Virus record (IMG/VR): IMGVR_UViG_3300011439_000036
Coordinates: 1 to 31,430 of that record
Source: a virus
Taxonomy: Duplodnaviria; Caudoviricetes
Direction: 5' to 3' (one strand)
Length of the DNA: 31,430 nt
In this document: piece by piece, positions 3,914 through 28,562 of the stretch
Layout: every line of letters begins with the position of its first letter
How positions within the stretch are numbered: the stretch's first letter is position 1
Notes under the pieces: generated by a model
Seen by the model: only the letters and a program-made list of their open reading frames with translations
Told to the model about the DNA's origin: nothing
Databases searched by the model: none
Position numbers and translations under genes: made by a program

Positions 3914-4058
3914 GGAGTTGGAGAAAGACGGCCCGATAAAGCCTGGAGAAAGCGTTACGCTTCTGTCCTGTTGTTCGCCTGTAAAGACTGAGCCAGAACC
4001 GGAGCATCACTACTGCGAGTATTGCGGCCGCGGCTGTGGTTGTGAAAGTCAAGATTAA
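3879..4058 (+). CDS. Hypothetical Cys-rich protein
   Basis: Short ORF with 'CEYCGRGCGC' that fills the gap between two genes. Confidence 0.5.
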   Translation: MNLPEIIKRTIEELEKDGPIKPGESVTLLSCCSPVKTEPEPEHHYCEYCGRGCGCESQD

Positions 4059-4868: not shown

Positions 4869-5077
4869 AAGTTCTTGGTCGTAAAATCGTCTGGGCTATT
4901 CCGCCCGGGATAAAGCCACTCGAAAACGCCCCTGAAGGGCGCCGCCGATTTAAGTTCAGAAATAATGGCGTTGGTCGGGTGTTCATCAAAACTAAAACCG
5001 GGGTAGGCCATTATATACTGGAGGATAAAGGAGATGTATGGGGGCTGATTCCACAAGGGGTGAATCAACGCGTATGA
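4865..5077 (+). CDS. Hypothetical protein
   Basis: ATGA overlaps with both neighbours. Confidence 0.55.
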   Translation: MKVLGRKIVWAIPPGIKPLENAPEGRRRFKFRNNGVGRVFIKTKTGVGHYILEDKGDVWGLIPQGVNQRV

Positions 5078-9457: not shown

Positions 9458-9479
9458 TTACATGTCGGCAGCCGTCAAC
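9458..9479 (-). promoter_or_regulatory. GTTGAC-N16-ATG motif, copy 2 (capsid)
   Basis: Minus strand GTTGAC GGCTGCCGACATGTAA ATG, inside the 3' end of the upstream gene. Confidence 0.7.
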
Positions 9480-9809
9480 AGGAGGTCTATAAGTTCTTCG
9501 GTTGGGTTCTGGATTGCGTCGGCGTGACACTCCCCAGATAGCGAGCGGGTTTCATTCGTGAATACGGAAACCTCTGATTGGCGCTCCACGTAGACACTCG
9601 GCCGTCCTGCGCGGGAAGTGCCGGCTGGGATGGGGTTGCACCAGCGATTTGTGTGAGCAACAAACCCCACACTAGCTTTGCCTGATACACCTTGAACCTT
9701 GAATAAGGTTTCGGATATGTAACGGATTTTGGGCAGTTCCGCACGCGCCTTGGATTTAGGCCGACGACTGCCACCGCCTTGAACGGCTGGTGCTTCCGGC
9801 TGCTCGCCA

Positions 9810-10150
9810 TCGGCTTCAACCGTGACCGTCCCGACCGCCGCCGTGGATGAAAGACCGCTAGGCGATGTGTTAGCTGCGCCCGTAACGGTAACGGTTCCGA
9901 GGCTTGCGGTAGCGCTTAATCCGGTTGCGTTAGTGTTCGCATCTGCGGTGACGGTAACGGACCCGACCGTCGCTGTAGCAGAAACCCCCTCCGCATTCAC
10001 GTCCACCGGGGTTCCTGTCGTAACGGTTACTTCGCCAAGTGCGGCAGTGGCTGAAACGCCTGTGGGTGACGTGTTCGCGTCTCCGGTAACGGTCGCGGTG
10101 CCAATCGCCCCGGTACCGCTTACTCCGGTGGCAGAAACGTTAACGCTAAG
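9810..10150 (-). repeat. Five ~22-aa tandem repeats (TG[VL]S.T..[LIV]G.VTV)
   Basis: Visible in the translation of ORF 9458..10657; coordinates approximate. Confidence 0.8.
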
Positions 10151-10680
10151 CGTGTATGTTACAGTGACAACCACCCAATCCTGCCTAAGTGTGACCGCCG
10201 CGGAGGTGCTGCTGCCCGTGTTCGGCTTAGCTCCTATCCTTAGCCTAATTGATGTGGTTGAAGCATCGCTTAACCCGGTCTGGTTTGTCCCTCCAGCGGT
10301 GGCGAAAGCCGTTGTTCCGGTAAATGCCGATGAACTTGAAAATGTGTTGCGAAGTGTTCCACCGGAATCTCTTAACTCGGCCTGGCCCGGTTGTGCTGGA
10401 TGCTCCCGTAGTGTATTCAGAACATCTCCAGTCATAATCCAGGTCAACTGCGCTGATGACCGCCCCGGCTGGTAGCCCAAGGGTTTCCCATGTGCCCGAC
10501 CATTCCCAGTATGGTGTGCCATTAGAGTTGTTCTTCCCGGTTCGCCTGGTTTGCATGACACCCGTCCCGGCGTTGGTGTCATTCCCGGAATCTTCCGTTG
10601 TGTCTCTGGTCCCCGCGATGCTTGAGCCGCCGTTGGCGTTAAAGGCCCAATCTTCAATCGTGGAATTGAAGCTGAATTGT

Positions 10681-10932
10681 TTAGTAAAAGTGGCCATCGC
10701 CTAACCCTCCACGACCGCAGGAAGCTTTTAAGTCCAATTCCCCACTCCTAACCGGGTTCACTCCAAAACTGAGAACCAGGAATAACAAGTGCAGGTCCAC
10801 GTATGGACCGTAACGCTCGCCTGAAGGCGTGACCCTCGCTCTCAGGTCAATGTGTATTCCGATTGATACCCACCAATCAACCGACCATTGAACCATCCAC
10901 CAGTGTCCGTGTTTCAGGTTCCATGCTGCCAT
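10681..10932 (-). CDS. Hypothetical Trp-rich protein
   Basis: 83 aa; TAATG overlap with the upstream gene. Confidence 0.55.
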   Translation of the reverse strand: MAAWNLKHGHWWMVQWSVDWWVSIGIHIDLRARVTPSGERYGPYVDLHLLFLVLSFGVNPVRSGELDLKASCGRGGLGDGHFY

Positions 10933-11351
10933 TAACCTAATCGGATAAGCGCGTTGCTTGCGTCGGCTGTGGGCAAGATCACGGTAAAAGTACCGTTGGT
11001 GCTGACTTTGTCCGAACCAAAATCCAACACAGCCACAGCCTTGTTGCTATTGGTGGAGTTATAGATCAGCGCCCCTCGAGCTGTTATGGTTGAGCTGGCC
11101 CAAGACGGGTCGGAGGTAAAATCAATCCAAGCGGTGGTTCCGCTGGCGCTCCGCGTATAGCCTGAAAGCGTGGCTCCACCGGCGCTGTAGCCCGTGCCCG
11201 AAACTTCATTGGTCGCGCTGTAGGCCGAGGTGCTGGCGTCCAGGCTGGCCGCGCTGGTGTACAGGGCTATTTTGTAAGTGTCGGCGGCTTCATGTTCGCC
11301 GCCAAGAATCTCTTGTTTAAAACTAGTGCAAATCGCTGCGGTTATTGCCAT
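10932..11351 (-). CDS. Conserved phage structural (fibre-associated) protein
   Basis: 'MAIT.AICTSFKQE', 'KIALYT', 'EVSGTGY.AGG', 'ITARGALIYN', 'VLDFG.DK'; SD GGAGGAG. Confidence 0.85.
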   Translation of the reverse strand: MAITAAICTSFKQEILGGEHEAADTYKIALYTSAASLDASTSAYSATNEVSGTGYSAGGATLSGYTRSASGTTAWIDFTSDPSWASSTITARGALIYNSTNSNKAVAVLDFGSDKVSTNGTFTVILPTADASNALIRLG

Positions 11352-12981
11352 TGGTCTCCTCCACAAGTGCGCCAGTTATTTCGCCTCTACTGTTACGATT
11401 GAATTCAATTCGTTTAACTGGCTTTGGTGTATCCTTCGGGAACTCAACCCGAACTTTGCTTTCGGGCACGTTTATAGTTACCGGAGCAGGCGAAATATGG
11501 TTGCTGATTGGCTGAATAACTCTTTCAGCGGCCACTGGTTGTGGTTCAGGCTTGGAATCGGGTGCATAGACAGAATCTGTGTCCAGATTCTTAGTAACCG
11601 GGTCATTTTCGAAATCTTTATCAATGGCTTCCATGTCCCCGCCCAGTTCCTTGATGACCTGGTTTCTGGATTCGATACGCATGGCAATAGCCGTTTTATG
11701 AGCTTCCATGTCGGCCTGAGGATCGACCCAGGGCCAACGGCGTGGGGTCCACTCGGGTTTATTGAACTTATCGAACTTAGAAGCGGGGAGAGCGACGCCA
11801 GATGTGGACTTGATAAGTCCCATGGTAAGTTCCCATTGAAGCCAATCCTCGAACAACCGGCCCTCGAAGGTTTCAATAAACCATTCCTGAATAGCTTTCC
11901 ATTCTTCACGCTGTTCGAGTTCACCCGAGCGGATTGAGGAGTAATTCACGCCTTCCAGGTCATTGGCCAGGCTGACATAGGAGACGCCCATACCCGAGGC
12001 AGACCCGCGCAGCTTGGACTTAACGAAATCACCAAAAGCCTGGTTGGGGTGAGTGGGGTCGATGGCTTTGTAGACTTGGCCAGGGCCGAGGTTAAGAACC
12101 ATACCGGGTTCCATGTCTTGCAGTTCATTCCCACGCCCGTCCACTTCGCCCTGGAACTGGTCTGGGGTGGTGTTCTCAATAGCGGCACCTTTGCAGGCGG
12201 CTTCTCTGGCTGCTACCAGCTCGGCTTCCTCATAGCCGGCCAACATCTTCAAAGGAAGAATCGAGGGAGCAATCCACGGCACGCCAACGTTCTGGCCTAT
12301 CCGTGTGGGCATGTAGACGTGAATTAATTCATCGGCTGGGATACGTGCTCGACGCCGTTTGGCCCTGTGCAGTGTGTCTCCTGGGTGGTCGTTGAAGATG
12401 TGGTAAGCTATTGGCCGCTTCCATTGGTCAAACTCAATCCCCATGCGGACTTCGTTCCCTTCGAATATCCCGTCAAAGTCGTGGTCTAACTGGTCAATCT
12501 CGATGAGTTGAACAGCGTATTTCCGGGCGTTATCGAACCCGCGCACGATACGAACCAAAGCCCCAGAATCGCGGGCGGCTGCATGCAGGACCAGTCGTTC
12601 AATTTGTCTCTTGGTGTGTTGGCCAGAAACGGTGAAGTTCTTGGCTTTGCACTGATCCTCCCATGCCATCTCAATAGCATCATTGGCCCCGGTATCATAA
12701 GAACCGTCCGGGTTTTGAATCTTCATCTGCAACTTGATTCCACAAGCCCCGAGAACGTTATTGAGCAGAAGCTTGAAGTATCGAGCAGCGTATTCGTTGT
12801 TCCGGTCCAAGTCTCTCGACCTGGCAATAAGTGACTTTCTCCCAGTCTTAATCTCCGCATCTGCGCTGGTGTAGGAGGTTAGCCAATCACTGGTCAGCCT
12901 GGAGTTAACCGCGCCAGCATAAGACCGCGTGGTCATACCGGATTTAACTATCCAACGAGCGAACTTGCGAAATAGATTCAC
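11323..12981 (-). CDS. Portal protein, lambda family
   Basis: 'ARSRDL.RNN', 'MGIEFD..RPIAYH', 'VNYSSIR', 'WPWVDP'; Pro-rich C-terminal extension. Confidence 0.95.
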   Translation of the reverse strand: MNLFRKFARWIVKSGMTTRSYAGAVNSRLTSDWLTSYTSADAEIKTGRKSLIARSRDLDRNNEYAARYFKLLLNNVLGACGIKLQMKIQNPDGSYDTGANDAIEMAWEDQCKAKNFTVSGQHTKRQIERLVLHAAARDSGALVRIVRGFDNARKYAVQLIEIDQLDHDFDGIFEGNEVRMGIEFDQWKRPIAYHIFNDHPGDTLHRAKRRRARIPADELIHVYMPTRIGQNVGVPWIAPSILPLKMLAGYEEAELVAAREAACKGAAIENTTPDQFQGEVDGRGNELQDMEPGMVLNLGPGQVYKAIDPTHPNQAFGDFVKSKLRGSASGMGVSYVSLANDLEGVNYSSIRSGELEQREEWKAIQEWFIETFEGRLFEDWLQWELTMGLIKSTSGVALPASKFDKFNKPEWTPRRWPWVDPQADMEAHKTAIAMRIESRNQVIKELGGDMEAIDKDFENDPVTKNLDTDSVYAPDSKPEPQPVAAERVIQPISNHISPAPVTINVPESKVRVEFPKDTPKPVKRIEFNRNSRGEITGALVEETNGNNRSDLH

Positions 12982-13571
12982 GGGAATGTGATGTCAGGGG
13001 CCCACTGTGACGGGGCGCGGAACCGGGCCAAGATGACTTTGCGATTCATCCCAGCAGCCGCGGCTTCCTCATTCAATACTTCATTCAGATAATGGGCTTT
13101 GAGCTTCAGTAACTTTTCAATGTCTTGAAACTCGAAGCTCACACCCTCGATAGTGACGCGGGTGGTTTGTTTCGCGGCCAACCGTTCCAAGGAGCGTTCA
13201 ATCAAGTCCAGGATTCGGCGGGAGTTGGTTCGGGTATCAATCTGGCCAGCACTAACAAAGTTGGGGTTGATGGTGAGTTTACCCGACCAGATATGTCGCC
13301 GTTCGCCCGTGGCGGTTTTGGTTACATACCCTTGGCCGTTATACTCCCCAGCAACCCATAGCTCGGTTGTGGCTGGTTCGATGGTGACCAGGTGATCGTC
13401 CCCGTCGTCATCTGCTTCGATTAGGATTGGGTCACCAGCAATCGGGACAGAGATGAACGCATAGGTTAAAACCCAATCCGGAGCGGGATAATCTGTAAGG
13501 CGTCGGGTCCACTCGGCGGTATCGCCAGCGGTAATCTGAACCGGTTCGATGTTTGGAATCGTGGCGGCCAC
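12978..13571 (-). CDS. Head-tail adaptor (N-terminal 'AGDT..W' domain + gpW-like C-terminus)
   Basis: Upstream of the portal; 'VTIEG...F..IEKL.KL...Y..EV' resembles gpW. Confidence 0.75.
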   Translation of the reverse strand: MAATIPNIEPVQITAGDTAEWTRRLTDYPAPDWVLTYAFISVPIAGDPILIEADDDGDDHLVTIEPATTELWVAGEYNGQGYVTKTATGERRHIWSGKLTINPNFVSAGQIDTRTNSRRILDLIERSLERLAAKQTTRVTIEGVSFEFQDIEKLLKLKAHYLNEVLNEEAAAAGMNRKVILARFRAPSQWAPDITFP

Positions 13572-13622: not shown

Positions 13623-13949
13623 ATGCCAGAGATAGGCGAACTTTGCGCGGAAGTATTTCAAGAACTTGAAGAAGCAGGATTGTTCGACCCCGCGTTTACT
13701 TGGGCGGGAGGTTCTTACGCCTGTATCCCCAATGCGGTCAGAAAACGGGCTTCACTTGAACCCGGTGGATTCAGCGTGGACGAAGATTTAGTATTGCACT
13801 GCAGGTCTGGTCAATTTGGGGACACGTTACCAACCAGGGGGCAGACCATAAGCTATGTCAGTGTGACTTACCGTATAGATAGCGTAACAACGGCCCCAGA
13901 CCAGGGCTTCATCCGACTCGGGTGTGTCAACGCTTCTAAAGGCGCATGA
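13623..13949 (+). CDS. Head-tail joining protein (gpFII-like)
   Basis: 108 aa; 'LP.RG..I......YRI..V' pattern; first gene of the tail operon. Confidence 0.65.
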   Translation: MPEIGELCAEVFQELEEAGLFDPAFTWAGGSYACIPNAVRKRASLEPGGFSVDEDLVLHCRSGQFGDTLPTRGQTISYVSVTYRIDSVTTAPDQGFIRLGCVNASKGA

Positions 13950-14095
13950 ACGAACTAATGAGAGAATTAAGAGTGGTCGCCAAAATTGAATATTACGACC
14001 CGGACGGGTACCTTGTTGCCGAGGTTTGGGTGCTTCCCAACGGTGAAAAGCGAATTATTGGGGACCCCCGGGCAGTGATACCGATTTCGGTATGA
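13946..14095 (+). CDS. Hypothetical protein, 49 aa (not in the ORF track)
   Basis: MNELMRELRVVAKIEYYDPDG...; ATGA overlaps on both sides. Confidence 0.55.
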   Translation: MNELMRELRVVAKIEYYDPDGYLVAEVWVLPNGEKRIIGDPRAVIPISV

Positions 14096-14751
14096 AGCCC
14101 ACGTTCAAACTCGATACCCGAGAATTTGACCGGACCATGCGCCGGTATGTTCAGCTTTCCAGTCGTGACCCGAAACAGATCACGGACACCAAAGGATTCT
14201 TCATTGCCAGACGGGCCACGGTTGAGACCAAGAAGGCAGACAAGGACAAAATTGCATCTCAACTCGGCCGGCTGATTAAGGTTCGGGGCATTAAAGGCAA
14301 GACTCTGGCTGCAAAGCCTTTGCTGGAAAGCATCATTCGGGCAAGGATTTATCGGGCCGGAGGAAAGCAACCAGCCAAAGAGGAAGTCAGAGATTTGATG
14401 CGAAAGGAGTTGGCTACAAGGATGAGTTCAATCGCCTTTATCAAGTCGGGTTGGTTGCCAGCTATTAAGACCCTAGCACCGTTCGCTGAGAAGCGCAACC
14501 AACCCAAGATAGACCGAACCGCCAAACAGCGCGGCAAACCCAACGGCTATGCCATACCCAGCCGGGGTGGGTGGCGTGGCAAAACCATCATAGCCAATAC
14601 AGCCGCATCCAAGACGGACAGGGGCGGGTTTATGAGATTCGGCATGGCTGGGCTGCAAGCAGCGTTCAATCACGAAACCAGATCCATGAAGGATTATATT
14701 CTGAACAAGCTTCGAGGCACAGCCCGTCAAGCTGGGGTGAAGGTGCGATAA
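14092..14751 (+). CDS. Basic neck/tail completion protein (HK97 gp10 position)
   Basis: Lys/Arg-rich, 'KSGWLPA' motif, gene position. Confidence 0.6.
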   Translation: MKPTFKLDTREFDRTMRRYVQLSSRDPKQITDTKGFFIARRATVETKKADKDKIASQLGRLIKVRGIKGKTLAAKPLLESIIRARIYRAGGKQPAKEEVRDLMRKELATRMSSIAFIKSGWLPAIKTLAPFAEKRNQPKIDRTAKQRGKPNGYAIPSRGGWRGKTIIANTAASKTDRGGFMRFGMAGLQAAFNHETRSMKDYILNKLRGTARQAGVKVR

Positions 14752-15203
14752 TGGCCACTGCCGCAATAGTCCTATCCAAGACCCGGCAAGCCCTGGTTGC
14801 GTACCTGACCGCTCAAGGCATATCCGGACTGACCATAGCAGACGGGAAAGCTTCTGGGGAAAAAGCCGCGCCTATTGCTATCTGTGACGCATCCAGCGCA
14901 ACCGAGGACATACCTGGGACAGGCAACTTCTGGGTGGATGTTGAGGTGATGCTGAAAACGGTTGCCCCGGTGGATTCGGGCGAGGATGAGACAGACCCGC
15001 ATACAAACTCAGAATCTTATTCGACTTCTGTGGCGAACGCCCTGTTCGATTCGGATTTACCCGGCGAACTGTCAGACGGTCTTGTCGATGAATTCCATTG
15101 CTTCGGGATCGGGGACGATACTGCCCATGAATCTGGCCAGGGTGAAGATTGTTGGGTTGAGACCTGGCGGTTTCGGTTGCTCTGTTGCTGCACCAGTTTC
15201 TAA
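14751..15203 (+). CDS. Tail terminator-like protein
   Basis: 150 aa, acidic; directly precedes the major tail gene; TAATG overlap. Confidence 0.6.
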   Translation: MATAAIVLSKTRQALVAYLTAQGISGLTIADGKASGEKAAPIAICDASSATEDIPGTGNFWVDVEVMLKTVAPVDSGEDETDPHTNSESYSTSVANALFDSDLPGELSDGLVDEFHCFGIGDDTAHESGQGEDCWVETWRFRLLCCCTSF

Positions 15204-15206
15204 AGC

Positions 15207-15229
15207 GTTGACGGTTGGCCATTCTCGAT
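15207..15229 (+). promoter_or_regulatory. GTTGAC-N17-ATG motif, copy 5 (major tail gene)
   Basis: GTTGAC GGTTGGCCATTCTCGAT ATG fills the intergenic gap. Confidence 0.7.
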
Positions 15230-15661
15230 ATGGCGACCATACGCGGCACTCCAATTAATTTCGGATTCACCACGGAAACCGGCGGGTTTACCGCTACCAA
15301 CTTATCCGGCAAGGGCCTGCTTCAAAGCGCGGAGCTGAGCGAAGAGGGGGACGTTGAGGAGGTGCGGGACGCAGACGGCGACTTGGCCGCGGAGGCGCAT
15401 TACAACCGCGGGCAGCGGGCGGTTCTGGAAATCATCATCATTGATGCAACCAACATCGCCAACGCCATCAACAACTGCGCACTCGGAACTAACTTCATCA
15501 AAGGTGCCTTCTTCCCGATAACAGCCTGTACCAGTATGCCGGAATTAATTGATACATCCGGTGCAAAATGGCGCATCATGGAAGCCCGTTGCGTCAAGGG
15601 CAACACCAACGCTGCTCGGTTGAACGTTACATTAGTCAAGCACGCTGGAATCGTCTCATAA
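15230..15661 (+). CDS. Major tail (tube) protein, putative
   Basis: 143 aa, beta-rich; lies between terminator and chaperone/TMP genes; has its own upstream motif. Confidence 0.65.
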   Translation: MATIRGTPINFGFTTETGGFTATNLSGKGLLQSAELSEEGDVEEVRDADGDLAAEAHYNRGQRAVLEIIIIDATNIANAINNCALGTNFIKGAFFPITACTSMPELIDTSGAKWRIMEARCVKGNTNAARLNVTLVKHAGIVS

Positions 15662-15664
15662 CCC

Positions 15665-16276
15665 ATGGGTGCCGCTTACTTTAAAGCGGCCATCCCAGAG
15701 CCGTATAGAATACTGGGCTTAAAGCTCAAACCGTTCTCGCTCGGCCATTATTTCATCTTGAGACGGTTTGAGTGTTCGTTTGTGGATGACGAAAAAGCGA
15801 CTGCAACTTTGGAAGATTTGATATTTGCCGTTTCTGTTTGTTCCATGTCCTACAAAGATTTCTTGGAGTTTATCGAACGCAAATATTATCCGTGGTGGTC
15901 CGTTCTGCTTTCCTGGGTATGGCCATGGCATCGGCCAAAGCCGAGATTTGTATGGCCTAGAGAGGCCAGGAAGTGGGGGAAGCAAGCGGGGCTGTTCGAC
16001 TTCAAATCCAAGGTTGCGTTGTTCATGCAATATCTGAATGAAGCAACAGAGCAACCCCAATATTGGGTAGAGGAGGAAGGCAAACCCAGTGGGGCACATT
16101 GGGCACAAGCTCTGTACGATTCTTTAATTGGTCAGGTTGGTTACACTCAAGAACAGGCTTTGAATAATCCATTGGCGCAATGTTTATCGGATTTCTACAG
16201 GCACGCCGAATCGGTTGGGTCTGTGCGGTTGATGACCGATCAGGAAGTTGAGGTGATAAATGGCGCTCAAGCTTGA
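15665..16276 (+). CDS. Tail assembly chaperone, putative
   Basis: Between tube and TMP genes; 'ILGLKLKPFSLGH', 'QEQALN.PL'. Confidence 0.6.
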   Translation: MGAAYFKAAIPEPYRILGLKLKPFSLGHYFILRRFECSFVDDEKATATLEDLIFAVSVCSMSYKDFLEFIERKYYPWWSVLLSWVWPWHRPKPRFVWPREARKWGKQAGLFDFKSKVALFMQYLNEATEQPQYWVEEEGKPSGAHWAQALYDSLIGQVGYTQEQALNNPLAQCLSDFYRHAESVGSVRLMTDQEVEVINGAQA

Positions 16277-17312
16277 AGCTCAAATAGGGCTGGATGGAGC
16301 TGGTTTTCAAGCCGGCATGAACCGAGTCATGGGGGCTGTGGGTAGTCTCAAAACCGCACTCGCCAGCGCATTCACCGCTGGGGCCGTGGCCAGTGCAACC
16401 CGTTCATTGATTCGGTTTGCGAGCGAGATTAAGGATACTGCCACAAGACTCGGAATGACAACTACCGAGGTTCAAGAGTTGTCATTCGCAGCGGACCAGA
16501 GCGGGTCAACCATGGCAAAGTTTGCGGTGGGGTTGGATTTCCTGGCAAGACAAATGGAATCGGCCGCTGAGGAGGGCGGGGACGCAGCGGAAGCCCTGCT
16601 TAGATTGGGGGCATCGTGGGAGGACATCAGATCACAAAACCCGGCCCAGGTTGCGGCGGCGATAGGGAAAGCACTGCAAACCACCAACATTACCAGCCAG
16701 GTATCTGCCGACCTGACAACAGCGATGGGGAGGGCTGGAACCAAGCTGATTCCGGTGCTTAAAGAGCTTGAGGAGAACATAGCAAAGGTTAGGGCACAAG
16801 GCTCAATAGTCTCACCCGAAAGTATTGATAACGTGGAACGAATGGGGGACAAAATAGATGCTTTAAAGAACAAGATAAAATCGTTTGAGGTCGAAGCCAT
16901 CGGAAGTCGGATCTCTTTGTTCGATGGGGAATGGTTAGCTGGTGTAGATGAGGGATACTGGGAGGGCAAGATCAGGATGAGCCAGCTTCACAAGATGTTC
17001 ACCGATCGGTCTAGGAAAAAGGGGAAGATGATGGACCAACCCCCAATGCCGACAGCGGAACAGATGAAAGCACTGCGGCCCGCAGGTGCTAGTAACAATC
17101 TCCCGTGGATGACGCAGGGGCCACCAGCCAGCCCCCCGACCATGGGTTCATCCGATGGGTTGGTTAGCGTGGGAAATTTCCTAGGCTCAAACCGCGCTTC
17201 AATTCTCACAGCAGCAGAAAAGACCAACAAGCTTTTGACGCTTACCAACCAACACTTGGCAGATATTAAAAAGTCATTAACCGGGTCGGAAACAGGATTC
17301 CCGCCCACATAA
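16260..17312 (+). CDS. Tape measure protein (short, 350 aa)
   Basis: 'LEAQIGLDG..F..G', 'RLGMTT.EVQEL.FAA.QSG', Ala-rich helical sequence. Confidence 0.8.
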   Translation: MALKLEAQIGLDGAGFQAGMNRVMGAVGSLKTALASAFTAGAVASATRSLIRFASEIKDTATRLGMTTTEVQELSFAADQSGSTMAKFAVGLDFLARQMESAAEEGGDAAEALLRLGASWEDIRSQNPAQVAAAIGKALQTTNITSQVSADLTTAMGRAGTKLIPVLKELEENIAKVRAQGSIVSPESIDNVERMGDKIDALKNKIKSFEVEAIGSRISLFDGEWLAGVDEGYWEGKIRMSQLHKMFTDRSRKKGKMMDQPPMPTAEQMKALRPAGASNNLPWMTQGPPASPPTMGSSDGLVSVGNFLGSNRASILTAAEKTNKLLTLTNQHLADIKKSLTGSETGFPPT

Positions 17313-17313
17313 T

Positions 17314-18120
17314 ATGCCGCACATTATCTTAGGAGCACCAGGCGCGGTTGAGCAACCGAAACGATACCGGGGTGATACACAGAACCCGGATACAATCGTC
17401 CGTTCATGGAAAGGGCCAAAGGAAGCAATCCTTAACCTGATACGACAAGCCAAAGTTGGAAGATACACATGGCGGGTTGAGGAGGGTCCGGGACCGTTAG
17501 CCACAATCGAAATGGAGGTTCCAATTTCGGCCGGGGGTGGAGGTGGCGAGGAAGAGGTGCCGGTTGATACATGGGAATTGTTGCCTGGTATTGTGGAGAA
17601 AGACTTGCTGGACTCGGATAATGTAGCCGTGGCCAACCTAACAATAGCTCAGCGAGACCAACTCCGGGACATAATCCACAATGGCAAGCCCGAGTCGCCA
17701 TCGTGGGCGTTTTCTGGGTCAACCATTACCGATGCCGGCCAGATTTACGCTCTGATGTCTAATGGGGTCCGTTCTGCTATCCAGTTTGCGCCAGTGATGC
17801 GCCGGACCAGGGCTGTATCCAATGCTTACGCCACGAAGCAAGCAAATACTAATGTGCGAAGAATACTAAGCACAGAGACGCTTGTGGATGACGAGGCTGT
17901 GCCGGGTTCGTTCCTGATTACCCTGGACAGTTCTCCTTACACGGATCAAATCTCTGGTGCCGAAGCCACGCTAAGGGCATCTCGTGGCCAACCGCCAATT
18001 CAGTTTGGGTGGTTAAAACATTCCCCGACACTTCAACAGGCCGCATTTAGTCGGCTGCACATAACCCAGGAATGGCATTTCGGACTGTGGTCCACGGTTC
18101 TTTATGACGAGGTTTTATGA
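17314..18120 (+). CDS. Tail tip/minor tail protein
   Basis: Position after TMP only. Confidence 0.55.
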   Translation: MPHIILGAPGAVEQPKRYRGDTQNPDTIVRSWKGPKEAILNLIRQAKVGRYTWRVEEGPGPLATIEMEVPISAGGGGGEEEVPVDTWELLPGIVEKDLLDSDNVAVANLTIAQRDQLRDIIHNGKPESPSWAFSGSTITDAGQIYALMSNGVRSAIQFAPVMRRTRAVSNAYATKQANTNVRRILSTETLVDDEAVPGSFLITLDSSPYTDQISGAEATLRASRGQPPIQFGWLKHSPTLQQAAFSRLHITQEWHFGLWSTVLYDEVL

Positions 18121-18653
18121 GGTACCCAATTGAACCCACTGGGCAAGGGTTGTTTGTTCAATGGTGCCGCAACCTGTTGTGGGCGGCCAAGTCCAAACAG
18201 ATCCTTCAGGGGCGCGGATATAGAATCAGAGAAACCCCAGACGGAACATTTTTGGAACTGATTCCCGGGGGCGGGAGTGGGGCGATTGTGTCCATGTATA
18301 AATTCGTTTCGATGGATTCAGAACATATTGTCTGTCACACATGGGATGGGGAGACCGAGGGAACAGACCCGGTGCGAATCGCTAAGCCGTGGAACCTGCG
18401 CCATTCCATTGTAAGCCAAACGATTGACGGGGTAGCGGTAACGTTCAGCGCATACAGCACATCAGCACAAACCAGGCTGGCAACGTCTGGCGGCGAGTCG
18501 GAAACCCAAGTAATGGTTCCGAGGTATCTCACCACAAGCCGAATCTGGGCGGTAACGGCACCAACCGATGTGGACCTTGGGACCGAGGAAGAACCGGACG
18601 TGTTGACCTTGCTGGACCTGAACATTGACGGCCGCGCTTACAGCGCAGTATGA
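18117..18653 (+). CDS. Minor tail protein, putative
   Basis: Position; 'GRGYRIRETPDGT.L'. Confidence 0.5.
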   Translation: MRYPIEPTGQGLFVQWCRNLLWAAKSKQILQGRGYRIRETPDGTFLELIPGGGSGAIVSMYKFVSMDSEHIVCHTWDGETEGTDPVRIAKPWNLRHSIVSQTIDGVAVTFSAYSTSAQTRLATSGGESETQVMVPRYLTTSRIWAVTAPTDVDLGTEEEPDVLTLLDLNIDGRAYSAV

Positions 18654-19852
18654 GCACGGGGCGCAACGCCTTTAATCAGTCGCCAAAGTACGCCTTTACT
18701 CAATCGCCGCACTTTGCGCGGGGATTGAGTTCACCCCCACCAGAGATTGAGATACAGATGTTATTGCAGACCAAGCAATGGCCGGGGCTTGGGTCTGGGG
18801 TTGTGCTTGGAAACAATCCATCGTTCAGATCCCCCGGTTATCCTGACGTGCCCCCCACCGCGGATTGGAGGCTGAAGGTTCGAAGGCGGTTTAGGGATTT
18901 GAGAAGCACGTGGACACATGGGGCGGTGTCTTATGAGGGCATTCACTCATATGCTGGCCCGGGAGATGTGCCGATGATCCAAGGGTTTCCACTGGAGATT
19001 CATGGCGACCCATCTGTGCTATCTGGGGAAAATCCTTTTCCGGCATTCCCCAACCCGGGACCATTCAATCAAGATTGGGATACAGAAGTCCCAGAGTTCT
19101 TTTTCGATTGGATTGAAGCTTACTGGACTGAACACGACCCCGCATTGATTCATGCTGACCAGTCTAGGAACTGGTTCCTAAGCACCAATGGCGAATATGA
19201 CTTCTTTACAGAGTTTTCATGGTTAAGAGAGCGGATTATACAACGGCCATATCCCACATTCGAAGTCGGGGTCTTTCCCGAGCGGTTCAATGAGTACAAC
19301 AACCTACTAGACATTGGTTCAAAAGACCCGGTTGATTATGACCGCAGCCCAGTAGCTTTGCCGCGGCGGAATGAGTTCGTGGATTTTATTCCGCCATTTG
19401 GTGCCCCGGCACACCCGGAGAATTTTTTTGATGTTCTGGCTTCCTGGTGGGTATATTTGTCTGAGGATTACAAGGGTGGAACGTTTGCAATTTCAGATGC
19501 TTTGTTTACACTGAACCAGCCTATCCGCGCTGTCAAAACCCGGTTCCGAACACCGCGCACAACGTCCTATTTCATTGCTGAAGGGATGCTTTTCAACTCT
19601 GGCGGTGCGGTCAATTTCTACCCACATATCGAGCATGATGTTATTCACGGGGCATCGGTTGTCGAACAAGGCACATTAACAGCCGGTCAGATAAAGGACG
19701 TTGGCTTTTATAAGACTGGGGCCGATGGGTATTATGGCGAGGAGGACTTTGCTCAGATCCGAGGCGGGATAGCTTGCGGTGGTATCCGGTTTTGTATCCT
19801 TGGAGAAACCCCAGCCCAATACACAGCCAGGACGGGGCTTGTTTTAGGTTAG
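18650..19852 (+). CDS. Minor tail protein, putative (Pro/aromatic-rich)
   Basis: 400 aa ORF coupled to the tail operon. Confidence 0.5.
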   Translation: MSTGRNAFNQSPKYAFTQSPHFARGLSSPPPEIEIQMLLQTKQWPGLGSGVVLGNNPSFRSPGYPDVPPTADWRLKVRRRFRDLRSTWTHGAVSYEGIHSYAGPGDVPMIQGFPLEIHGDPSVLSGENPFPAFPNPGPFNQDWDTEVPEFFFDWIEAYWTEHDPALIHADQSRNWFLSTNGEYDFFTEFSWLRERIIQRPYPTFEVGVFPERFNEYNNLLDIGSKDPVDYDRSPVALPRRNEFVDFIPPFGAPAHPENFFDVLASWWVYLSEDYKGGTFAISDALFTLNQPIRAVKTRFRTPRTTSYFIAEGMLFNSGGAVNFYPHIEHDVIHGASVVEQGTLTAGQIKDVGFYKTGADGYYGEEDFAQIRGGIACGGIRFCILGETPAQYTARTGLVLG

Positions 19853-19878: not shown

Positions 19879-20502
19879 ATGGGCTTACTCAAGCTTGCCA
19901 TTAATCGGCAGAGCAAATCGTTGGTGGACTTTGAGGGGACCGCCGTATCAATTCCTGCGCTTTTCCAAGGCGACACTCAGCCGTTTGAAATCTCCATTTT
20001 AGACCCGACTGGTCAGTTGCAAAACCCATACGCCAAGGTTGATGTCGGTTCCTTAACCCTTCGTGTGTCTGTTGGGCAGACCCCGACCGGAACAGCCGGT
20101 GGCCCGACCCCATTAGCCCTGCAAACCACTTGGACGTGGGATTCCACCAATCAACAGTTTGAAGGGGAGATAGCTTTAAACACGGCAGGGATTACTTCGT
20201 TTATCGGGACGGCTTCGGAACGAACAGCGTATTTCGAGGTCAAGCTGGATGATGGTGGCGAGTTGGACACGGTTCTGCAACTCCAATTCACCCTGAAAGC
20301 CGTGGTGGATGAGAACGCAACCGAAGCCCCAGCCCTTACCGAGACATTCCTAACCTTTGCCCAGTCCGATGCGCGGTATGTCAAGTTCGCAAACAATACG
20401 AACGGGGCCACGATCAGATTGAGAAGTCCGAACGGAACATACGAATTGGAGTTGGGCTGCAACGACGATGGGTCGGTGAAGATGGACGTAATCACGTTAT
20501 GA
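19879..20502 (+). CDS. BppU-like baseplate/fibre adaptor
   Basis: 'QGDT' N-terminal motif, 'AYFEV', 'AQSDARYV', C-terminal 'LRSPNGT..L...DDG'; no signal peptide. Confidence 0.6.
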   Translation: MGLLKLAINRQSKSLVDFEGTAVSIPALFQGDTQPFEISILDPTGQLQNPYAKVDVGSLTLRVSVGQTPTGTAGGPTPLALQTTWTWDSTNQQFEGEIALNTAGITSFIGTASERTAYFEVKLDDGGELDTVLQLQFTLKAVVDENATEAPALTETFLTFAQSDARYVKFANNTNGATIRLRSPNGTYELELGCNDDGSVKMDVITL

Positions 20503-21908
20503 GAATTCTTTTGGTATTACTTCTGTTCCTGTCTTTATCTGCGAATGCCGCCATTCGAATCACGGCAAGTTTATCCATCACCAACGGGACCACGAACGGC
20601 CAGACCATTGTCATCAATGGAAGTACCCGGACCTGGACCAATTCGGTTTTTGTCCCGTTAACTCAGGTTCTCACCAACAGCACGGCAGCCGGGGCCAAGA
20701 CGAATCTATATTCCCATTTCGGTTCATCCCCGATTGCTTCGGTGGCAATCAGCGACGCGGGTTCAACCAACTTCAATTTTATCGGTCAATGCGGTTCATT
20801 CCTGACCGTTACACCCTCGGCTGGGTGGGCCACGGTCTCATACAGCACCCAGCAATGTACAACCCTTGTTGGTGTACGCGTGCCAGTCAGTGGTGAACCT
20901 GCTTCGGCGCAGCAGACCAATATCGCTTCTGGGTTGGTTCATGCCTTTAACATGAATGTTGTCACCCAGGCTTTATTTGAAAGCTCCACATCTGTATCGA
21001 ACCTAGTTGGCCGGACCAATGCGCAATCCATTTCCGGGAACAAGACGTTCACGGGGACCAACATCTATTCCAACTCATTTTCGATTTTCTATAACGGAAC
21101 GGTTTCGAATGCAACAGACATAAGCGGGAACTTGGGCACTGTTACAAATGGTTCGTGGCGAAACCCAAAGATGATAGGAGACACTTCAATCACCAATGGG
21201 GTTCTGGCGATCACCAACGGGACGCAGGCATACGTTGAGCTTTCCCCGAATCAGGGAAGTGTTGTGTGGCGACTCATCGGGCTTACTACTGGTCTTACTA
21301 TAGGCCAAATCGGCACTGGTAATTGGCTTAGCCTGCTTACAAATGGATCGACAATAGTGTCCGCGGTGGCGTCCAGCCAGCCTGCGTTTATTGTTCAAGC
21401 AGCTGGCACTACTGCAACCAATCTGGTTGAGATTCAAGGCCCGGGGCAGAACATTGTTTTCTCGGTTAACACCAACGGAAACGCATACCTTTCAGGAAGC
21501 CTGTATGTTGTTGGGTCTATCACGAATGTTACCACACGCGGAACGAACAATTTCCCAGCCGGCTCAGACATAGCTTTCGGTAGGTACGCTAATGCGTCCT
21601 TGGCTTCGGGGAACAATTCTGGGGTGATTGTCGGAACAAACGTTTATATGGAAGTGTCCGGCCCTGGAGCGGCGTTCTCGATTCACGGCATCACTGGCAG
21701 CCCCAACCGAGACGGAAAGCTAATCATTATCGACAACAACACAGGCTTTGACATGACCATCGCTCATCAATCCGGGACAGACCCAGTTGCCGGAAACCGA
21801 ATCATCTCGAACACCGGAGCGGACAGAACCACGACCGGGAACGGTTCGGCAATCCTGATTTATAACGGAACAACTTCGCGCTGGAAACTTGTCCATTTCG
21901 ACCCATGA
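20499..21908 (+). CDS. Tail-fibre-like protein with a predicted Sec signal peptide
   Basis: N-terminus MRILLVLLLFLSLSANA|A; fibre motif 'AQSISGNKTFTG'; C-terminal '..AILIYNGTTSRW'. Confidence 0.75.
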   Translation: MRILLVLLLFLSLSANAAIRITASLSITNGTTNGQTIVINGSTRTWTNSVFVPLTQVLTNSTAAGAKTNLYSHFGSSPIASVAISDAGSTNFNFIGQCGSFLTVTPSAGWATVSYSTQQCTTLVGVRVPVSGEPASAQQTNIASGLVHAFNMNVVTQALFESSTSVSNLVGRTNAQSISGNKTFTGTNIYSNSFSIFYNGTVSNATDISGNLGTVTNGSWRNPKMIGDTSITNGVLAITNGTQAYVELSPNQGSVVWRLIGLTTGLTIGQIGTGNWLSLLTNGSTIVSAVASSQPAFIVQAAGTTATNLVEIQGPGQNIVFSVNTNGNAYLSGSLYVVGSITNVTTRGTNNFPAGSDIAFGRYANASLASGNNSGVIVGTNVYMEVSGPGAAFSIHGITGSPNRDGKLIIIDNNTGFDMTIAHQSGTDPVAGNRIISNTGADRTTTGNGSAILIYNGTTSRWKLVHFDP

Positions 21909-24427
21909 GAATACTTCTCGCCTTAATTCTCCTGTCCTTACCCGCTCAAGCGGCTCATGTAATATTCAATTTCGAAGATTACACCACTGAACCGCATTGG
22001 GTGCGTAGGTTCGTGCTGTATCCCGTGGGCCAGTTCACCAACGGTGCGGGAGCGATGATTACCCGGGATTGGGTCTCAAGGAACACCGGGACCAACGGGA
22101 GCACAACCATTTCTAATGTGTACGGCTGGACCTATCGAGGAGAGTTCTACGGGCGCAACATTGTCACGACCAATTATTTTACTTTCCCGGTTACAAACGG
22201 ATTAATCAATGCCAGCCATTATGTAGGGTCTGCCACGAATCAGCCCGGACTTGGCTACACCATGCAAGGGGCAGACTTGCGGTTTGTGAATGTGACTGGG
22301 GACGGCATGACAGCGGGCGGGCTTACAAACAACTCTGACGGGTTCTGGTATAACGGTGAACTAATCACGGCTGGGGGTGCGAGCACCACTAACAGTTTGC
22401 GGGTTTACGTGGACCCGAGCGGATCAGATTCCACTGGAACAAGGGGGCTGAGGTCTAAAGCATTCAGGACATTGGCTGGGGCGATTACCGTCGTGCAGTC
22501 CGGCGACACGGTTCAGGTATCAGCCGGAACTTATGTCGGGACCAACCTTTCAGTTAACGGTGTCACATGGATCTTTGACCAAAACTCAATCATCAACACG
22601 ACAAATCGGGTTGTGTTTTATGACCAGGGAGTAGCCTGCACAAATTATGTTCGTGGTGGGCGCTGGTATCACAATGGGTCTGCATTCGCGTTTGCAGACA
22701 TTAGCGCACAATCCCTATTGGTAATCGACTGTGAACAAATCGAATCTACATCCACATCGGGCATGTTCGTCCTGGCTGATGGCCATGTGTTTGTTCGGGC
22801 CAGTCGTTTCCTTAACGCATCAGAATATGACATTGTTAGCCCCGGTATTGGCGACTGGGATTCACTCTATATTGAGTCTCCGCTGATCCGGGCTAAAGAT
22901 AGCATTCTTGAGACGGGCGCGGCCGGGATTACTCACTTGATAGCGATGCGGGCTGAATCTCAAGGGGAACAGAACTGGGTCATGTTCTGCAATAGCAACA
23001 CCGTGGCGCAAGTTGGTGAACTCGTAATGACCAGCGGCAAACTCGGCGGGAACGGTGGCATCATCGACGCTGACACGATCACCAGCTATTCAACGAACAC
23101 ATTCGGGATTCAATCCGGCCTGTGCAGTTCATACGGTGTGCTCACGATTAAGAACGCCCGAATCAATTTATCGACCAATTCTTTCGGCCTGCTGAATTGT
23201 GCGAGTGCACATTACGTTTTTCAAAACTGCGATATTGTTTCAACCCACGCCACGCCGTTTGGGCTTGCTGGCTCGACGGTGACATACCTGGCAACCCGGA
23301 CGAATGGGGTCTTAGCATCTACTGCGGAGTTTAGCGGAACCGAGATCCAGCTAAATGGGGACAGCGGGGCTGATCCTATTCTAACAATCAACGACACGGA
23401 CGAGACTTTTGCCGCGGGGGCGAAAGTAATCAGTCTTGTGAATGGGCTGCTCGGCGAGGTGCTCTCGGTTAGTTCGGCGGGCGAGGTCGTTAACGTGGGT
23501 GGGTTCACAAGCTCAGATGATTTCACGGCGACCACTGGTGGCACATTCATTGGGAGCGGGGGTGGGTTAAGCAATGCCGTGGACCTGATTCCTGGTAGCA
23601 ATGTCACAATCACGACCAACGCGAACAAGAGGAGCTTCACTATAGCATCAACTGGGGGTGGGGGTTCGCCCGGCGGTAGCGATAGCTATGTGCAGTATAA
23701 CAACGGCGGAGCATTCGGCGGTGAAGCTACTTTCGCTTGGGACGATGTAAACGATCTGCTCACGGTGACTGGCGGAGGGATTAATAGCGGAATAGTCACC
23801 GACAAAATCCTGCAAGGGAATCACATCACCAGCACGACCGATGTTATTGCTGGCGCTGACGTGGCTGCTACAGGAACCGTGAGTGGTGCGGATGTTACAT
23901 CATCAGACGATACAACGGTCGGTGATGCGCTGACCGTGGGTGGGGCACAAACCAATACAGCCCTTGCCGGGTCCGGGGTGCGTTATGTCCAGGTGCTTTC
24001 TGATGGAGCCTTTCGGGCGGTGAACGCTACCAATGCCGTTGGGGCTTCGGGCATGACCACGAACTATAATGGGCTGCAATTCTCCAATGGGTCTTTAACG
24101 AATGTGACCGTGAAGATTTACCGGGCGTTGATAACTCAGTCTGGTGTTGGCGCACCATCTGCCACTGTGCTGGAAAACACCCTTGGTGGTACAGTGGTCT
24201 GGGCGTATTCGGACGTGGGCAGATACACAGCCACGCTATCCTCTGCTTTCACGGCAAATAAAACATTTCTCTTGTTAAGCCTTGCTTCGACCGGCGAGTC
24301 GCCATCGAAGGCGCACGCCCTGCACACATCCGCCGATGTAATATCGGTGAATAGTGGGGACGGTGGGAACTATGCTGACGACCTTATCCCAGCGGGTTCC
24401 TGTATCCAAATCCTGGTGTACCCATGA
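21905..24427 (+). CDS. Tail fibre/spike-like protein (beta-helix region) with a predicted Sec signal peptide
   Basis: N-terminus MRILLALILLSLPAQA|A; 'ADLRFVNVTGD', 'VYVDPSGSD..G....AFRTL..AI', 'PGSNVTIT', 'PGGSDSYVQYNNGGAFGG', 'YRALITQSG..AP.ATVLENTLG'. Confidence 0.8.
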   Translation: MRILLALILLSLPAQAAHVIFNFEDYTTEPHWVRRFVLYPVGQFTNGAGAMITRDWVSRNTGTNGSTTISNVYGWTYRGEFYGRNIVTTNYFTFPVTNGLINASHYVGSATNQPGLGYTMQGADLRFVNVTGDGMTAGGLTNNSDGFWYNGELITAGGASTTNSLRVYVDPSGSDSTGTRGLRSKAFRTLAGAITVVQSGDTVQVSAGTYVGTNLSVNGVTWIFDQNSIINTTNRVVFYDQGVACTNYVRGGRWYHNGSAFAFADISAQSLLVIDCEQIESTSTSGMFVLADGHVFVRASRFLNASEYDIVSPGIGDWDSLYIESPLIRAKDSILETGAAGITHLIAMRAESQGEQNWVMFCNSNTVAQVGELVMTSGKLGGNGGIIDADTITSYSTNTFGIQSGLCSSYGVLTIKNARINLSTNSFGLLNCASAHYVFQNCDIVSTHATPFGLAGSTVTYLATRTNGVLASTAEFSGTEIQLNGDSGADPILTINDTDETFAAGAKVISLVNGLLGEVLSVSSAGEVVNVGGFTSSDDFTATTGGTFIGSGGGLSNAVDLIPGSNVTITTNANKRSFTIASTGGGGSPGGSDSYVQYNNGGAFGGEATFAWDDVNDLLTVTGGGINSGIVTDKILQGNHITSTTDVIAGADVAATGTVSGADVTSSDDTTVGDALTVGGAQTNTALAGSGVRYVQVLSDGAFRAVNATNAVGASGMTTNYNGLQFSNGSLTNVTVKIYRALITQSGVGAPSATVLENTLGGTVVWAYSDVGRYTATLSSAFTANKTFLLLSLASTGESPSKAHALHTSADVISVNSGDGGNYADDLIPAGSCIQILVYP

Positions 24428-24603
24428 GTGAACGCGTAAAGGATTTTATCGCCACAGCAGCCGCTACAAGCCCGTGGATTGCTACCGGGGTAAGCCTGGC
24501 TGCGGTTGAGCAGTGGCTAAGGATTGCGTCTCTGTGCGTGGGTATTTGCGGCGGGGTCTGCGCGATCATTTATTACCTAATCAAAATCCAAAAGGACGAA
24601 TGA
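24424..24603 (+). CDS. Small membrane protein, holin-like, 59 aa (not in the ORF track)
   Basis: MSERVKDF...WLRIASLCVGICGGVCAIIYYLIKIQKDE; ATGA overlaps. Confidence 0.65.
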   Translation: MSERVKDFIATAAATSPWIATGVSLAAVEQWLRIASLCVGICGGVCAIIYYLIKIQKDE

Positions 24604-24878
24604 GCATTTTCACAAACGGTAACGCACGGATCACGAAGCTAATCCTATTGCAGCTCGCGGCCGGTGTGGTGGTCATGGTCCTGACCCAGGTTCTAGCAAA
24701 TTTACCCGCACAGGATTGGCTCTCGCCCAAGGCTCTAAAGGTGACTTCATTCGTGCTCGGAACAGTCCTGACCGCAATTAAAGGGGGCGAAATGTTCTTT
24801 AGCAAGACTGTCGCGTTGTTCAAAGGAAAAGACCCGGAAACCGTTAGCGGAAACACAGAAACCATAACTAAACCATGA
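24600..24878 (+). CDS. Two-TM membrane protein, holin-like
   Basis: Two hydrophobic segments and a charged C-terminus. Confidence 0.6.
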   Translation: MSIFTNGNARITKLILLQLAAGVVVMVLTQVLANLPAQDWLSPKALKVTSFVLGTVLTAIKGGEMFFSKTVALFKGKDPETVSGNTETITKP

Positions 24879-25243
24879 AAAAACTCATATCACTATTACT
24901 GGCCGCAGTCTCGGTGGTCTTGATTACAGGATGCGCCAATGTGGGAAAGTCTCTAGCCACAACCGCCGTTACCGTAGATTCAGCCATGCAGGGATGGGCA
25001 ACATACGTTGCTCTTGGAAACGCCACCGAAGAGCAAGAGGCGCAAGTGAAAACGGCCTATGCTAAGTACCAAGCATCCATGCGGATTGCCCGGGATGCTT
25101 ACGTGGCGGCCGCCACTGCCGGGAATAAAGACCTTTACACATCAGCCGCGGAAGTGCTCGAAGCGAACCAATTCGCGCTGTTGAGTATGCTTTCATTTTT
25201 CCAAACCGCACAAACAACCCCACAAGTGAAGGTGAACCAATGA
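24875..25243 (+). CDS. Lipoprotein (possibly spanin-like)
   Basis: MKKLISLLLAAVSVVLITG|C lipobox; helical mature region. Confidence 0.75.
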   Translation: MKKLISLLLAAVSVVLITGCANVGKSLATTAVTVDSAMQGWATYVALGNATEEQEAQVKTAYAKYQASMRIARDAYVAAATAGNKDLYTSAAEVLEANQFALLSMLSFFQTAQTTPQVKVNQ

Positions 25244-28196: not shown

Positions 28197-28562
28197 TCAC
28201 TTAACGGGCTGTTTGGGCAGACCAGCCCTGATCCGTTCCTCGACGTGGAATTTCTTGACCATTAAATCGGCTCGTTCTTTTGCAATCGGGCTTGCCTCGG
28301 CATTCAATTGTTTCCGCGCCTGTTCTTCTGGTTTTGTGCTTTGACCGGCAGTCATTTTCAGATGTTGAAGCGTGGTTAGCCTGGTAGTGTTCGACCTGTA
28401 CTTCGCAAGTTGAATATCAATCGCGGCAAGCCGGGTCATGATCCATTTATGTTCCGAGTCAGCCTTGCACCTGATCGTGAACAAATCGTTCGTGGCAGCC
28501 TTCTTTGGTGTGGGTTGGGCCAAAGCCGAAACAGTCATCAACAACAATATGATAAACCGCAT
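28197..28562 (-). CDS. Secreted coiled-coil protein (possible lysogenic conversion/exclusion factor)
   Basis: Signal peptide MRFIILLLMTVSALA|Q; upstream TTGACC-N17-CAAAAG-N6-ATG. Confidence 0.65.
   Translation of the reverse strand: MRFIILLLMTVSALAQPTPKKAATNDLFTIRCKADSEHKWIMTRLAAIDIQLAKYRSNTTRLTTLQHLKMTAGQSTKPEEQARKQLNAEASPIAKERADLMVKKFHVEERIRAGLPKQPVK

Follow-up and report, generated by a model that had tools for sequence, protein, structure and literature searches.

Conserved secretion-type leaders on fibre-slot proteins of a lambda-like siphophage and a predicted periplasmic route for its side fibres

Here we describe three consecutive tail genes of a lambda-like siphophage, an adaptor and two genes that we call A and B, whose last two products are probably exported. 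The genes lie on the plus strand of the window, that is, the whole stretch of DNA analysed (31,430 nucleotides; positions 1 to 31,430 of IMG/VR record IMGVR_UViG_3300011439_000036), which makes up most of a 39,895-bp virus record estimated to be complete. A leaderless adaptor of 207 residues (19879..20502) is followed by A (20499..21908; 469 residues) and B (21905..24427; 840 residues), both intact open reading frames (ORFs), and ATGA overlaps mark all three junctions (adaptor to A, A to B, and B to the next gene). A and B are located between the baseplate genes and the putative lysis genes of the late operon. Tailed virions assemble in the cytoplasm, and their fibres normally have no signal peptides; the leaders of A and B do not fit this usual pattern of cytoplasmic folding. 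Because these secretion-type leaders are conserved, it is likely that the fibres mature outside the cytoplasm. We propose that adaptor, A and B form a side-fibre chain whose outer links pass through the periplasm and join the virion at lysis, and assign this reading a probability of roughly 0.65. The label 'fibre' is used here on the basis of position, folds, fusions and shared domains rather than a direct family match, as neither A nor B gave a PHROG match or an above-threshold Pfam match.

The initial annotation of this DNA had claimed that two adjacent genes in the fibre position both start with signal peptides, and this is borne out by the intact ORFs and by leaders found throughout the family; the four fibre motifs that it named are also all present (at A176, B123, B590 and B739). 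Protein A opens with MRILL, a hydrophobic core and ANA/AIRIT, with cleavage predicted at the slash, after residue 17 (leader at 20499..20549). Protein B opens with MRILL, a hydrophobic core and AQA/AHVIF, with cleavage predicted after residue 16 (21905..21952). Both leaders are of the Sec/signal peptidase I type, as judged from sequence together with family conservation for A and the N-domain profile for B. Leaders were called by a rule of our own (not SignalP), consisting of a basic n-region, an uncharged hydrophobic 8-mer and a small-x-small site. The searches yielded 145 relatives of A among 8,000 candidates, and leaders were counted on the 120 listed, which include the window's own A. By the final rule, 107–109 of these 120 are leader-positive (98 by the first version of the rule), compared with none of the best 150 adaptor relatives; the survey of relatives for conserved signal peptides that had been suggested earlier thus comes out in favour of the claim. 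The small-x-small cleavage pattern is found in 114 of the 120, and a hydrophobic 8-mer precedes the first conserved strand in 116. The other four begin 14 residues or fewer from that strand, and one of them (P0067) has a cluster member carrying a full leader.

Head and tail relatives from 27 loci served as a second control, with leaders in 4 of 139, corresponding to about 3% false positives for the rule. At the same loci, A is leader-positive in 24 of 27 and the gene after A in 20 of 21. All 20 distinct domains that strictly match the profile of the B N-domain are leader-positive; a looser match, in L006, is leader-negative, and its domain begins 120 residues into the called ORF. Mean identity to the query across the A family is 0.34 in the leader, 0.51 in the N-domain and 0.62 in the C-domain, which indicates that the character of the leader is kept rather than its letters. 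It is very improbable that we are looking at an artefact of chance hydrophobic starts or mis-called start codons: a false-positive rate of about 3% would produce some such calls, but around 90% of a divergent family bears leaders, these leaders are unrelated in sequence, and the starts overlap upstream stop codons. As far as sequence comparison can tell, the leaders on A and B are more than chance, and export of both proteins via Sec is very probable.

The adaptor is modelled (pLDDT 90) as a BppU/p132-like N-domain (residues 1–140), a collar helix and a small C-terminal beta module (residues 175–207). The top Foldseek matches of the model are TP901-1 baseplate chains (4v96) and the N-domain of ORF48 (BppU; 3uh8), with E values of 4e-6 to 2e-5; the TM score against 3uh8 is 0.59 by target, and BppU_N also appeared as a lead. 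Neck proteins, a T5 tail-tip chain (7qg9_L) and the 80alpha baseplate come next, then generic immunoglobulin (Ig) folds at E values of about 1e-3. On this prediction, the N-domain of the adaptor is Ig-like and has the BppU fold. In a profile search, the adaptor weakly matched a T5-like L-shaped fibre assembly protein (E 0.28), residues 4–148 align in the Atlas with Verrucomicrobiota proteins of 737 and 767 residues, and there was no PHROG or above-threshold Pfam match. A single-sequence search of viral contigs with the adaptor matched only the phage itself; the profile matches 1,842 cluster representatives. Among 37 distinct adaptor ORFs, a count biased towards A since they come from loci retrieved with A, an A gene follows in 29, of which 23 are spaced at −3 to +4 nucleotides and 27 are leader-positive. 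The remaining ORFs comprise four fusions and four that are cut off or uninformative; 1 of the 37 was flagged as leader-bearing.

Natural fusions suggest how the parts are wired. Four closely related contigs (L037, L038, L039 and L041) encode a leaderless protein of 300–302 residues in which the adaptor is fused to the C-domain of A. In L038, adaptor residues 1–174 (probability 99.5) run into the A C-domain (E 2e-11), so that the last 30 residues of the adaptor are lost together with the leader, N-domain and stalk of A. From these losses, adaptor residues 175–207 are predicted to be a socket and A residues 18–120 the plug that it receives. The next gene, visible in three of the four contigs, is leaderless. 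In five distinct loci (L008, L009, L101, L085 and L022), a fibre body directly follows the A C-domain, and the N-domain of B is absent from all five fusions. The B N-domain is therefore predicted to plug onto the A C-domain, which would act as the socket for B. This wiring is read from one lineage for the adaptor–A link and from five for the A–body link. It had been suggested earlier that the signal-less adaptor might attach the exported fibres to the virion; a predicted BppU/p132 anchor fold and the fusion to the A C-domain in four contigs agree with such a role, and from these we infer the attachment itself.

The model of A contains two confident domains and a poor middle. The N-domain (residues 18–120; 20550..20858; pLDDT about 95) is a beta-sandwich with a C98/C120 cysteine pair. 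Residues 18–118 align with the tail-sheath insertion domain of cyanophage A-1(L) (Z 11.2, r.m.s.d. 1.9, 90 residues aligned), and the domain aligns with T7-type podophage tail proteins (T7 gp12) and T4 gp11 at Z 7.5–8.7. The stalk (20859..21575; low model confidence) comprises a helix, a BppL_N-like collar motif at residues 173–187, which is a sub-threshold Pfam match to PF18338 (BppL_N; E 0.0039), and a variable beta spacer. The C-domain (residues 360–469; 21576..21905; pLDDT about 90) is a jelly-roll in the model and in structure alignments. Its alignments (6o38, 7rfo, 9ny6, 9f4a and 24qj) score Z 7.2–8.4, with 8.4 for 6o38, a bacterial chaperone-substrate entry, and about 7.5 for CBA120 TSP4 residues 78–179, the Pa223 capsid spike tip and a T4-like baseplate protein; the scores for the A domains are middling. 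The top Foldseek match of the C-domain is TSP4 1–335 (E 8.8e-5). Leaderless proteins (L032 and L028) with PHROG tail-fibre matches at their N-termini end in this C-domain as well, and via L038 it also matches Manatee Spring phage proteins that carry a tail-fibre annotation.

On unrelated phage contigs too, leader-bearing proteins contain an A C-domain or lie next to one (L031:7784-10330, L040:8474-10285, L100:7024-11257 and L035:10966-12146). In L006, L012, L019–L021 and L022, A is found, mostly with an adaptor-like gene, in phages whose other tail genes differ from those of the window, and it is likely that the module moves between tail types.

The initial annotation had offered cell-surface display or decoys as an alternative. 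In this scenario, A and B would form a trimeric, adhesin-like structure on the surface of infected cells or lysogens, serving lysogenic conversion or a superinfection block. The A family profile matches trimeric adhesin heads, many A relatives contain YadA-head repeats, one source name reads 'trimeric autotransporter adhesin', integrated members exist (on the G002 contig), a bacterial chromosome (G001) keeps A without an adaptor, and Bdellovibrio displays phage-like fibres bearing signal peptides, according to the available part of PMC10769870. However, Pfam found no YadA-head match in the window's own A and neither a YadA anchor nor another barrel in A or B, the A C-terminus models as a jelly-roll, and there is no lipobox cysteine to hold either protein at a surface. 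The genes also overlap tail and lysis-type genes, and promoter-like sites are no more frequent than chance predicts (12 found, 11.1 expected), with a terminator scan likewise at chance level. We regard display as quite unlikely.

Protein B begins with an N-domain (residues 17–131; 21953..22297) that has a prealbumin-like fold and a collar motif. Viral clusters are nearest to it in the Atlas (TM 0.63–0.68), and PF08400 (phage_tail_N, a prophage tail-fibre N-terminal family) is a lead at 0.82, below the bar. The same N-domain occurs alone as a leader-bearing protein of 130 residues with an acidic tail (L016:11557-11949, L094:3890-4282 and L097:1111-1503), possibly a cap or a further adaptor. The variable body (22298..24112), likely a beta-helix (called by eye) with fibre segments, is the probable receptor-binding part; no family match was found for this body in this phage. 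A search of B against PDB sequences gave a single DNMT3B row, which was rejected as spurious. The C-domain (residues 737–839; 24113..24421) is common to leaderless Flavobacterium phage proteins: it was found in 74 phage records, 73 of them of Flavobacterium phages, with best identities of 41–44%. These records are annotated as 'putative tail fiber protein' or 'structural protein', and the three proteins checked are leaderless. For pippi8-1, 'structural protein' is annotation only (PMC7077304 contains no mass spectrometry).

In relatives, the exported proteins 3' of A include pectate-lyase-like, alpha-galactosidase, GDSL and LamG domains (such matches in 6 of the 28 proteins scanned) and also show tail-spike PHROG matches. 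Such carbohydrate-active domains would also suit proteins that are exported and never become virion-bound, so that lysis sets them free to act as adhesins, as decoys or as depolymerases opening a way through capsule or biofilm, while host recognition falls to the 400-residue gene at 18650..19852 or to the adaptor alone. Several relatives encode three to five consecutive exported proteins, which is more than one chain may need, and the 18650 slot varies greatly in length. However, free release leaves unexplained why A almost always abuts the adaptor, why adaptor and A are found fused and why the B N-domain is lost in A fusions. We consider it unlikely.

A compositional bias follows the leaders. 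The Thr-Asn dipeptide occurs 1,782 times in the mature A relatives, compared with 636 ± 24 in shuffles (2.8-fold), and in the window's own proteins it is found 18 times in A (5.7 expected) and 18 times in B (6.8 expected), about 2.7–3.1 times expectation. Because the A relatives are not independent of one another, we also examined downstream exported proteins, a set of 32 large leader-bearing proteins 3' of A from 29 loci, with the first 140 residues dropped. Here Thr-Asn ranks top of the 400 dipeptides (549 versus 209; 2.6-fold), 30 of the 32 proteins exceed expectation, and proline is depleted after Thr-Asn. The ratio is 1.01 in the head and tail genes and 0.69 in the adaptors used as controls, 0.76 in 19 leaderless proteins that have A's C-domain and 0.83 in 9 leaderless anchor or fibre proteins of other Verrucomicrobiota prophages. 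Since leaderless fibres are unbiased and exported proteins are biased, it is export, and not the fibre fold, that Thr-Asn tracks in this lineage. An exported fibre-slot protein of another genome (L135) shows no such bias. In G001, a Verrucomicrobiae chromosome of which 740 kb was sampled (L145–L164 and L172–L188) and which is not known to host this phage, the ratio is 1.61 and 1.78 in leader-bearing proteins (57 and 25 proteins) and 0.94 in membrane proteins.

A cause at the DNA level is unlikely, as seven codon pairs are used. Canonical N-glycosylation (STT3/PglB) was considered and rejected: N-x-S/T sequons are not enriched in the A family (ratio 0.97), and no STT3 (PF02516) was found in the three genomes searched, of which two are drafts and none is known to host this phage. 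Thr-Asn may instead be a motif for modification in the host envelope. The literature searched, which left out most subscription papers, holds no account of this motif.

Two positions in the N-domain of A are consistent with an extracytoplasmic location. The 120 relatives include six with both C98 and C120, and C120 never occurs alone; two other relatives carry an unrelated nearby cysteine, and the six may be a single clade. Conserved leaders, a Thr-Asn bias like that of secreted proteins and the co-occurring cysteine pair together argue strongly for export as initially proposed. They also bear on a further possibility, that the leaders are membrane tethers with no or fractional export, so that fibres are assembled at the inner membrane and reach the tail from the cytoplasmic side. 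Cytoplasmic joining would fit standard assembly, but the small-x-small pattern in 114 of 120 relatives, the short h-regions, the paired cysteines and a Thr-Asn bias that tracks the leader rather than the fold make tethering distinctly improbable.

On the proposed chain, adaptor, A and B would be made together from the late tail operon, in keeping with their gene order and overlaps. The adaptor would remain in the cytoplasm and, going by its predicted fold, be incorporated into the tail tip. A and B would leave via Sec and have their leaders removed, a step strongly supported by the family-wide leaders, and may then trimerise in the periplasm, with disulfides in some members. A host envelope enzyme is likely to modify them at Thr-Asn. 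Once holins breach the inner membrane, or at lysis, the A N-domain would dock onto the adaptor C-terminal module and the B N-domain onto the A C-domain, as the fusions suggest, leaving the variable body of B to bind or cut host surface glycans. Late joining has an in vitro parallel in P22 tailspikes and T4 long fibres, which can be added to completed particles outside the cell.

Several observations weigh against this chain. In a survey that started from the adaptor, matches were obtained in 18 of the 401 genomes searched from the phylum, and 18 stretches from 17 new genomes were inspected. An ORF with the adaptor domain was obtained in 14 of the 18 stretches, always leaderless and often long; the next gene is leaderless in 9 of the 14, leader-bearing in 4 (one of them doubtful) and absent in 1, and none matches A. 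The adaptor therefore does not need exported partners. One of the leaderless next genes (L136) matches PHROG tail and tail-fibre families. Judging from the survey, what follows the adaptor differs by lineage: an ordinary fibre in some, exported proteins in the present one. The fold of the A N-domain is common to flagellin and FliD (Z 6–7.5), and the YadA-head repeats (PF05658) in the middle of many A relatives are typical of bacterial surface adhesins. The A C-domain is also found in leader-bearing proteins in an apparently cellular context (L061, and L060 beside secreted proteins), and A is kept on the G001 chromosome (L059) with no adaptor match anywhere in that genome. Thr-Asn is also enriched in low-charge leaderless proteins of G001 (1.76, n = 59; 1.05 in charged ones, n = 224), the sorting by charge being a proxy of our own; without its 14 top contributors, many of which look secreted by eye, the low-charge class falls to 0.99. 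Mature A relatives have no cysteine or one in 96 of 120 cases and, as the C98/C120 pair is found in only six, disulfides are not a general reason for export. A tblastn search with A found no GenBank phage and no cultured member, and the leaderless 400-residue gene at 18650..19852 could be the true receptor-binding tip. 

The apparently cellular loci have features of their own. The A relative at L059:9932-12753 lies directly 5' of a tape-measure gene and is a decayed or domesticated prophage piece; L061:6611-10216 and L060:8207-10333 are large proteins that end in the A C-domain and lie among secreted proteins.

The remainder of the window is organized as follows. A gpA-type terminase (303..2204, plus strand) was identified by PHROG and Pfam scans, as was a head block on the minus strand (7559..13571) with a lambda-family portal, a protease-fused capsid protein and a head–tail joining gene. 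The head block sits between the plus-strand terminase and tail blocks with no inverted repeats found bracketing it; its orientation may be a real inversion or an assembly effect. Between the portal and capsid genes, 9458..10657 (minus strand) encodes a Thr/Ser/Ala/Gly-rich repeat protein with no family match, possibly a head decoration, whose translation probably begins downstream of the called start. After the terminase, 2582..6637 encodes a TPR protein, two methyltransferases and a group 1 glycosyltransferase, enzymes that may modify virion proteins in the cytoplasm; relatives of some of these genes lie near neck genes in L010, L071, L015, L011 and L101. A leaderless neck and tail module (13623..19852, plus strand) comprises putative neck and tail-tube genes, a tape measure of 350 residues with PHROG matches (16260..17312), two conserved tail-tip genes (starts at 17314 and 18117) and the 400-residue leaderless gene (18650..19852), the length of whose slot varies among relatives. 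The gene order of the module is the same in relatives, and roles beyond the tape measure are assigned from position.

Downstream of B, on the plus strand, are two small hydrophobic holin-like ORFs (24424..24603 and 24600..24878), so called from position and hydrophobicity, and a lipoprotein (24875..25243) that is a putative lysis gene by position and has relatives in L008 and L085. The two putative lysis genes scanned in 24424..25243 gave no family match, and no endolysin or integrase was matched among the ORFs scanned (31 in the window and 9 from the rest of the record). The 9.5 kb covering the record outside the window contains no fibre-like ORF (the longest ORF is 242 residues); against PHROGs, the nine of its ORFs that were scanned came out as nucleases, a methyltransferase or unknowns. 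A leader-bearing protein of 121 residues is encoded at 28197..28562 on the minus strand, outside the tail operon. A has relatives on a Verrucomicrobiia contig, on a Verrucomicrobiae chromosome and on a contig binned as Terriglobia, and on the Verrucomicrobiia contig phage genes run, by eye, into host-looking ORFs. From these placements and this junction, the host is likely to be a member of Verrucomicrobiota. The seven sequencing runs listed are all metagenomes of freshwater sediment, and three of them may be where this DNA came from.

In the broadest form of the proposal, this would be a widespread family of Verrucomicrobia phages whose virion is built in two compartments, with a fibre that is glycosylated at Thr-Asn by an undescribed host envelope system and snaps on at lysis. 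We advance this form tentatively, at somewhat less than even odds. If it holds, the particle would wear host-made sugars, and the fibres of one phage could arm the particles of another in the same cell. Textbook tailed-phage virions are completed in the cytoplasm before lysis, and a periplasmic fibre chain would add a second assembly compartment. Such a route would open disulfide formation and host envelope modification to receptor-binding proteins, and might hold glycan-cutting fibres apart from unfinished particles. The locus makes the idea testable through a candidate socket (adaptor 175–207), its plug (A 18–120) and leaderless fused counterparts as controls, and the Thr-Asn bias may mark a motif for protein modification in Verrucomicrobia.

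Among known systems, the closest in layout are the BppU–BppL baseplate of TP901-1 and the anchors of T5 and 80alpha, which share the adaptor fold, a weak BppL_N-like collar in A and the order of anchor followed by fibre. The BppU-type partners in these phages are not known to carry leaders and assemble in the cytoplasm, whereas A and B carry signal peptides, and the C-terminal part of the adaptor is not matched to that of BppU. CBA120 TSP4 and T4 gp10/gp11 resemble A in both domains: its C-domain is similar to TSP4 78–179 and to a T4-like baseplate protein, and its N-domain to T4 gp11. However, the Z score is only about 7.5, the matched part of TSP4 is presumably different from the region that recruits other spikes, and none of these proteins is known to have a leader. 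Branched tailspike systems also share the arrangement of a conserved hub followed by variable glycan-acting partners.

The cultured Verrucomicrobia siphophage P8625, which falls among the lineages with an ordinary fibre, has a related terminase, portal and tape measure, and the N-terminus of its tail fibre gp22 weakly matches the adaptor (probability 31, E 5e-4). It differs in that there is no A or B profile match and no leader by our rule, in line with the available part of its report, which found no signal peptides (PMC4642752); nor is Thr-Asn enriched (3 versus 3.9 and 4 versus 4.1). The MAT fibres of Bdellovibrio are surface adhesins of the predator cell, 13 of 21 of which end in an S74 chaperone according to the part of PMC10769870 available. 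A and B belong instead to a phage tail operon; no S74 match was found in A, B or 28 related proteins, and a single weak Foldseek row pointed to Bd1334 (E 0.23). Trimeric autotransporter adhesins (YadA, BpaC and EibD) share a Sec leader and, with many A relatives, YadA-head repeats, but A and B have no match to a C-terminal translocator barrel, which makes a trimeric autotransporter unlikely.

Filamentous phage coat proteins are virion proteins made with Sec leaders; they are membrane-anchored, and the virus, which has no tail and does not lyse its host, assembles them as it is extruded. Porphyromonas gingivalis prophages likewise combine phage genes with host-adapted Sec signal peptides: the available part of PMC10367356 describes five such genes of unknown function as possible outer-membrane modifiers and never uses the term 'tail fiber'. 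The literature searched gave no account of exported fibres in tailed phages. Set beside these systems, the parts of the adaptor–A–B chain are, as predicted from sequence, known folds, and the two-compartment route would be new for tailed phages as far as that literature goes.

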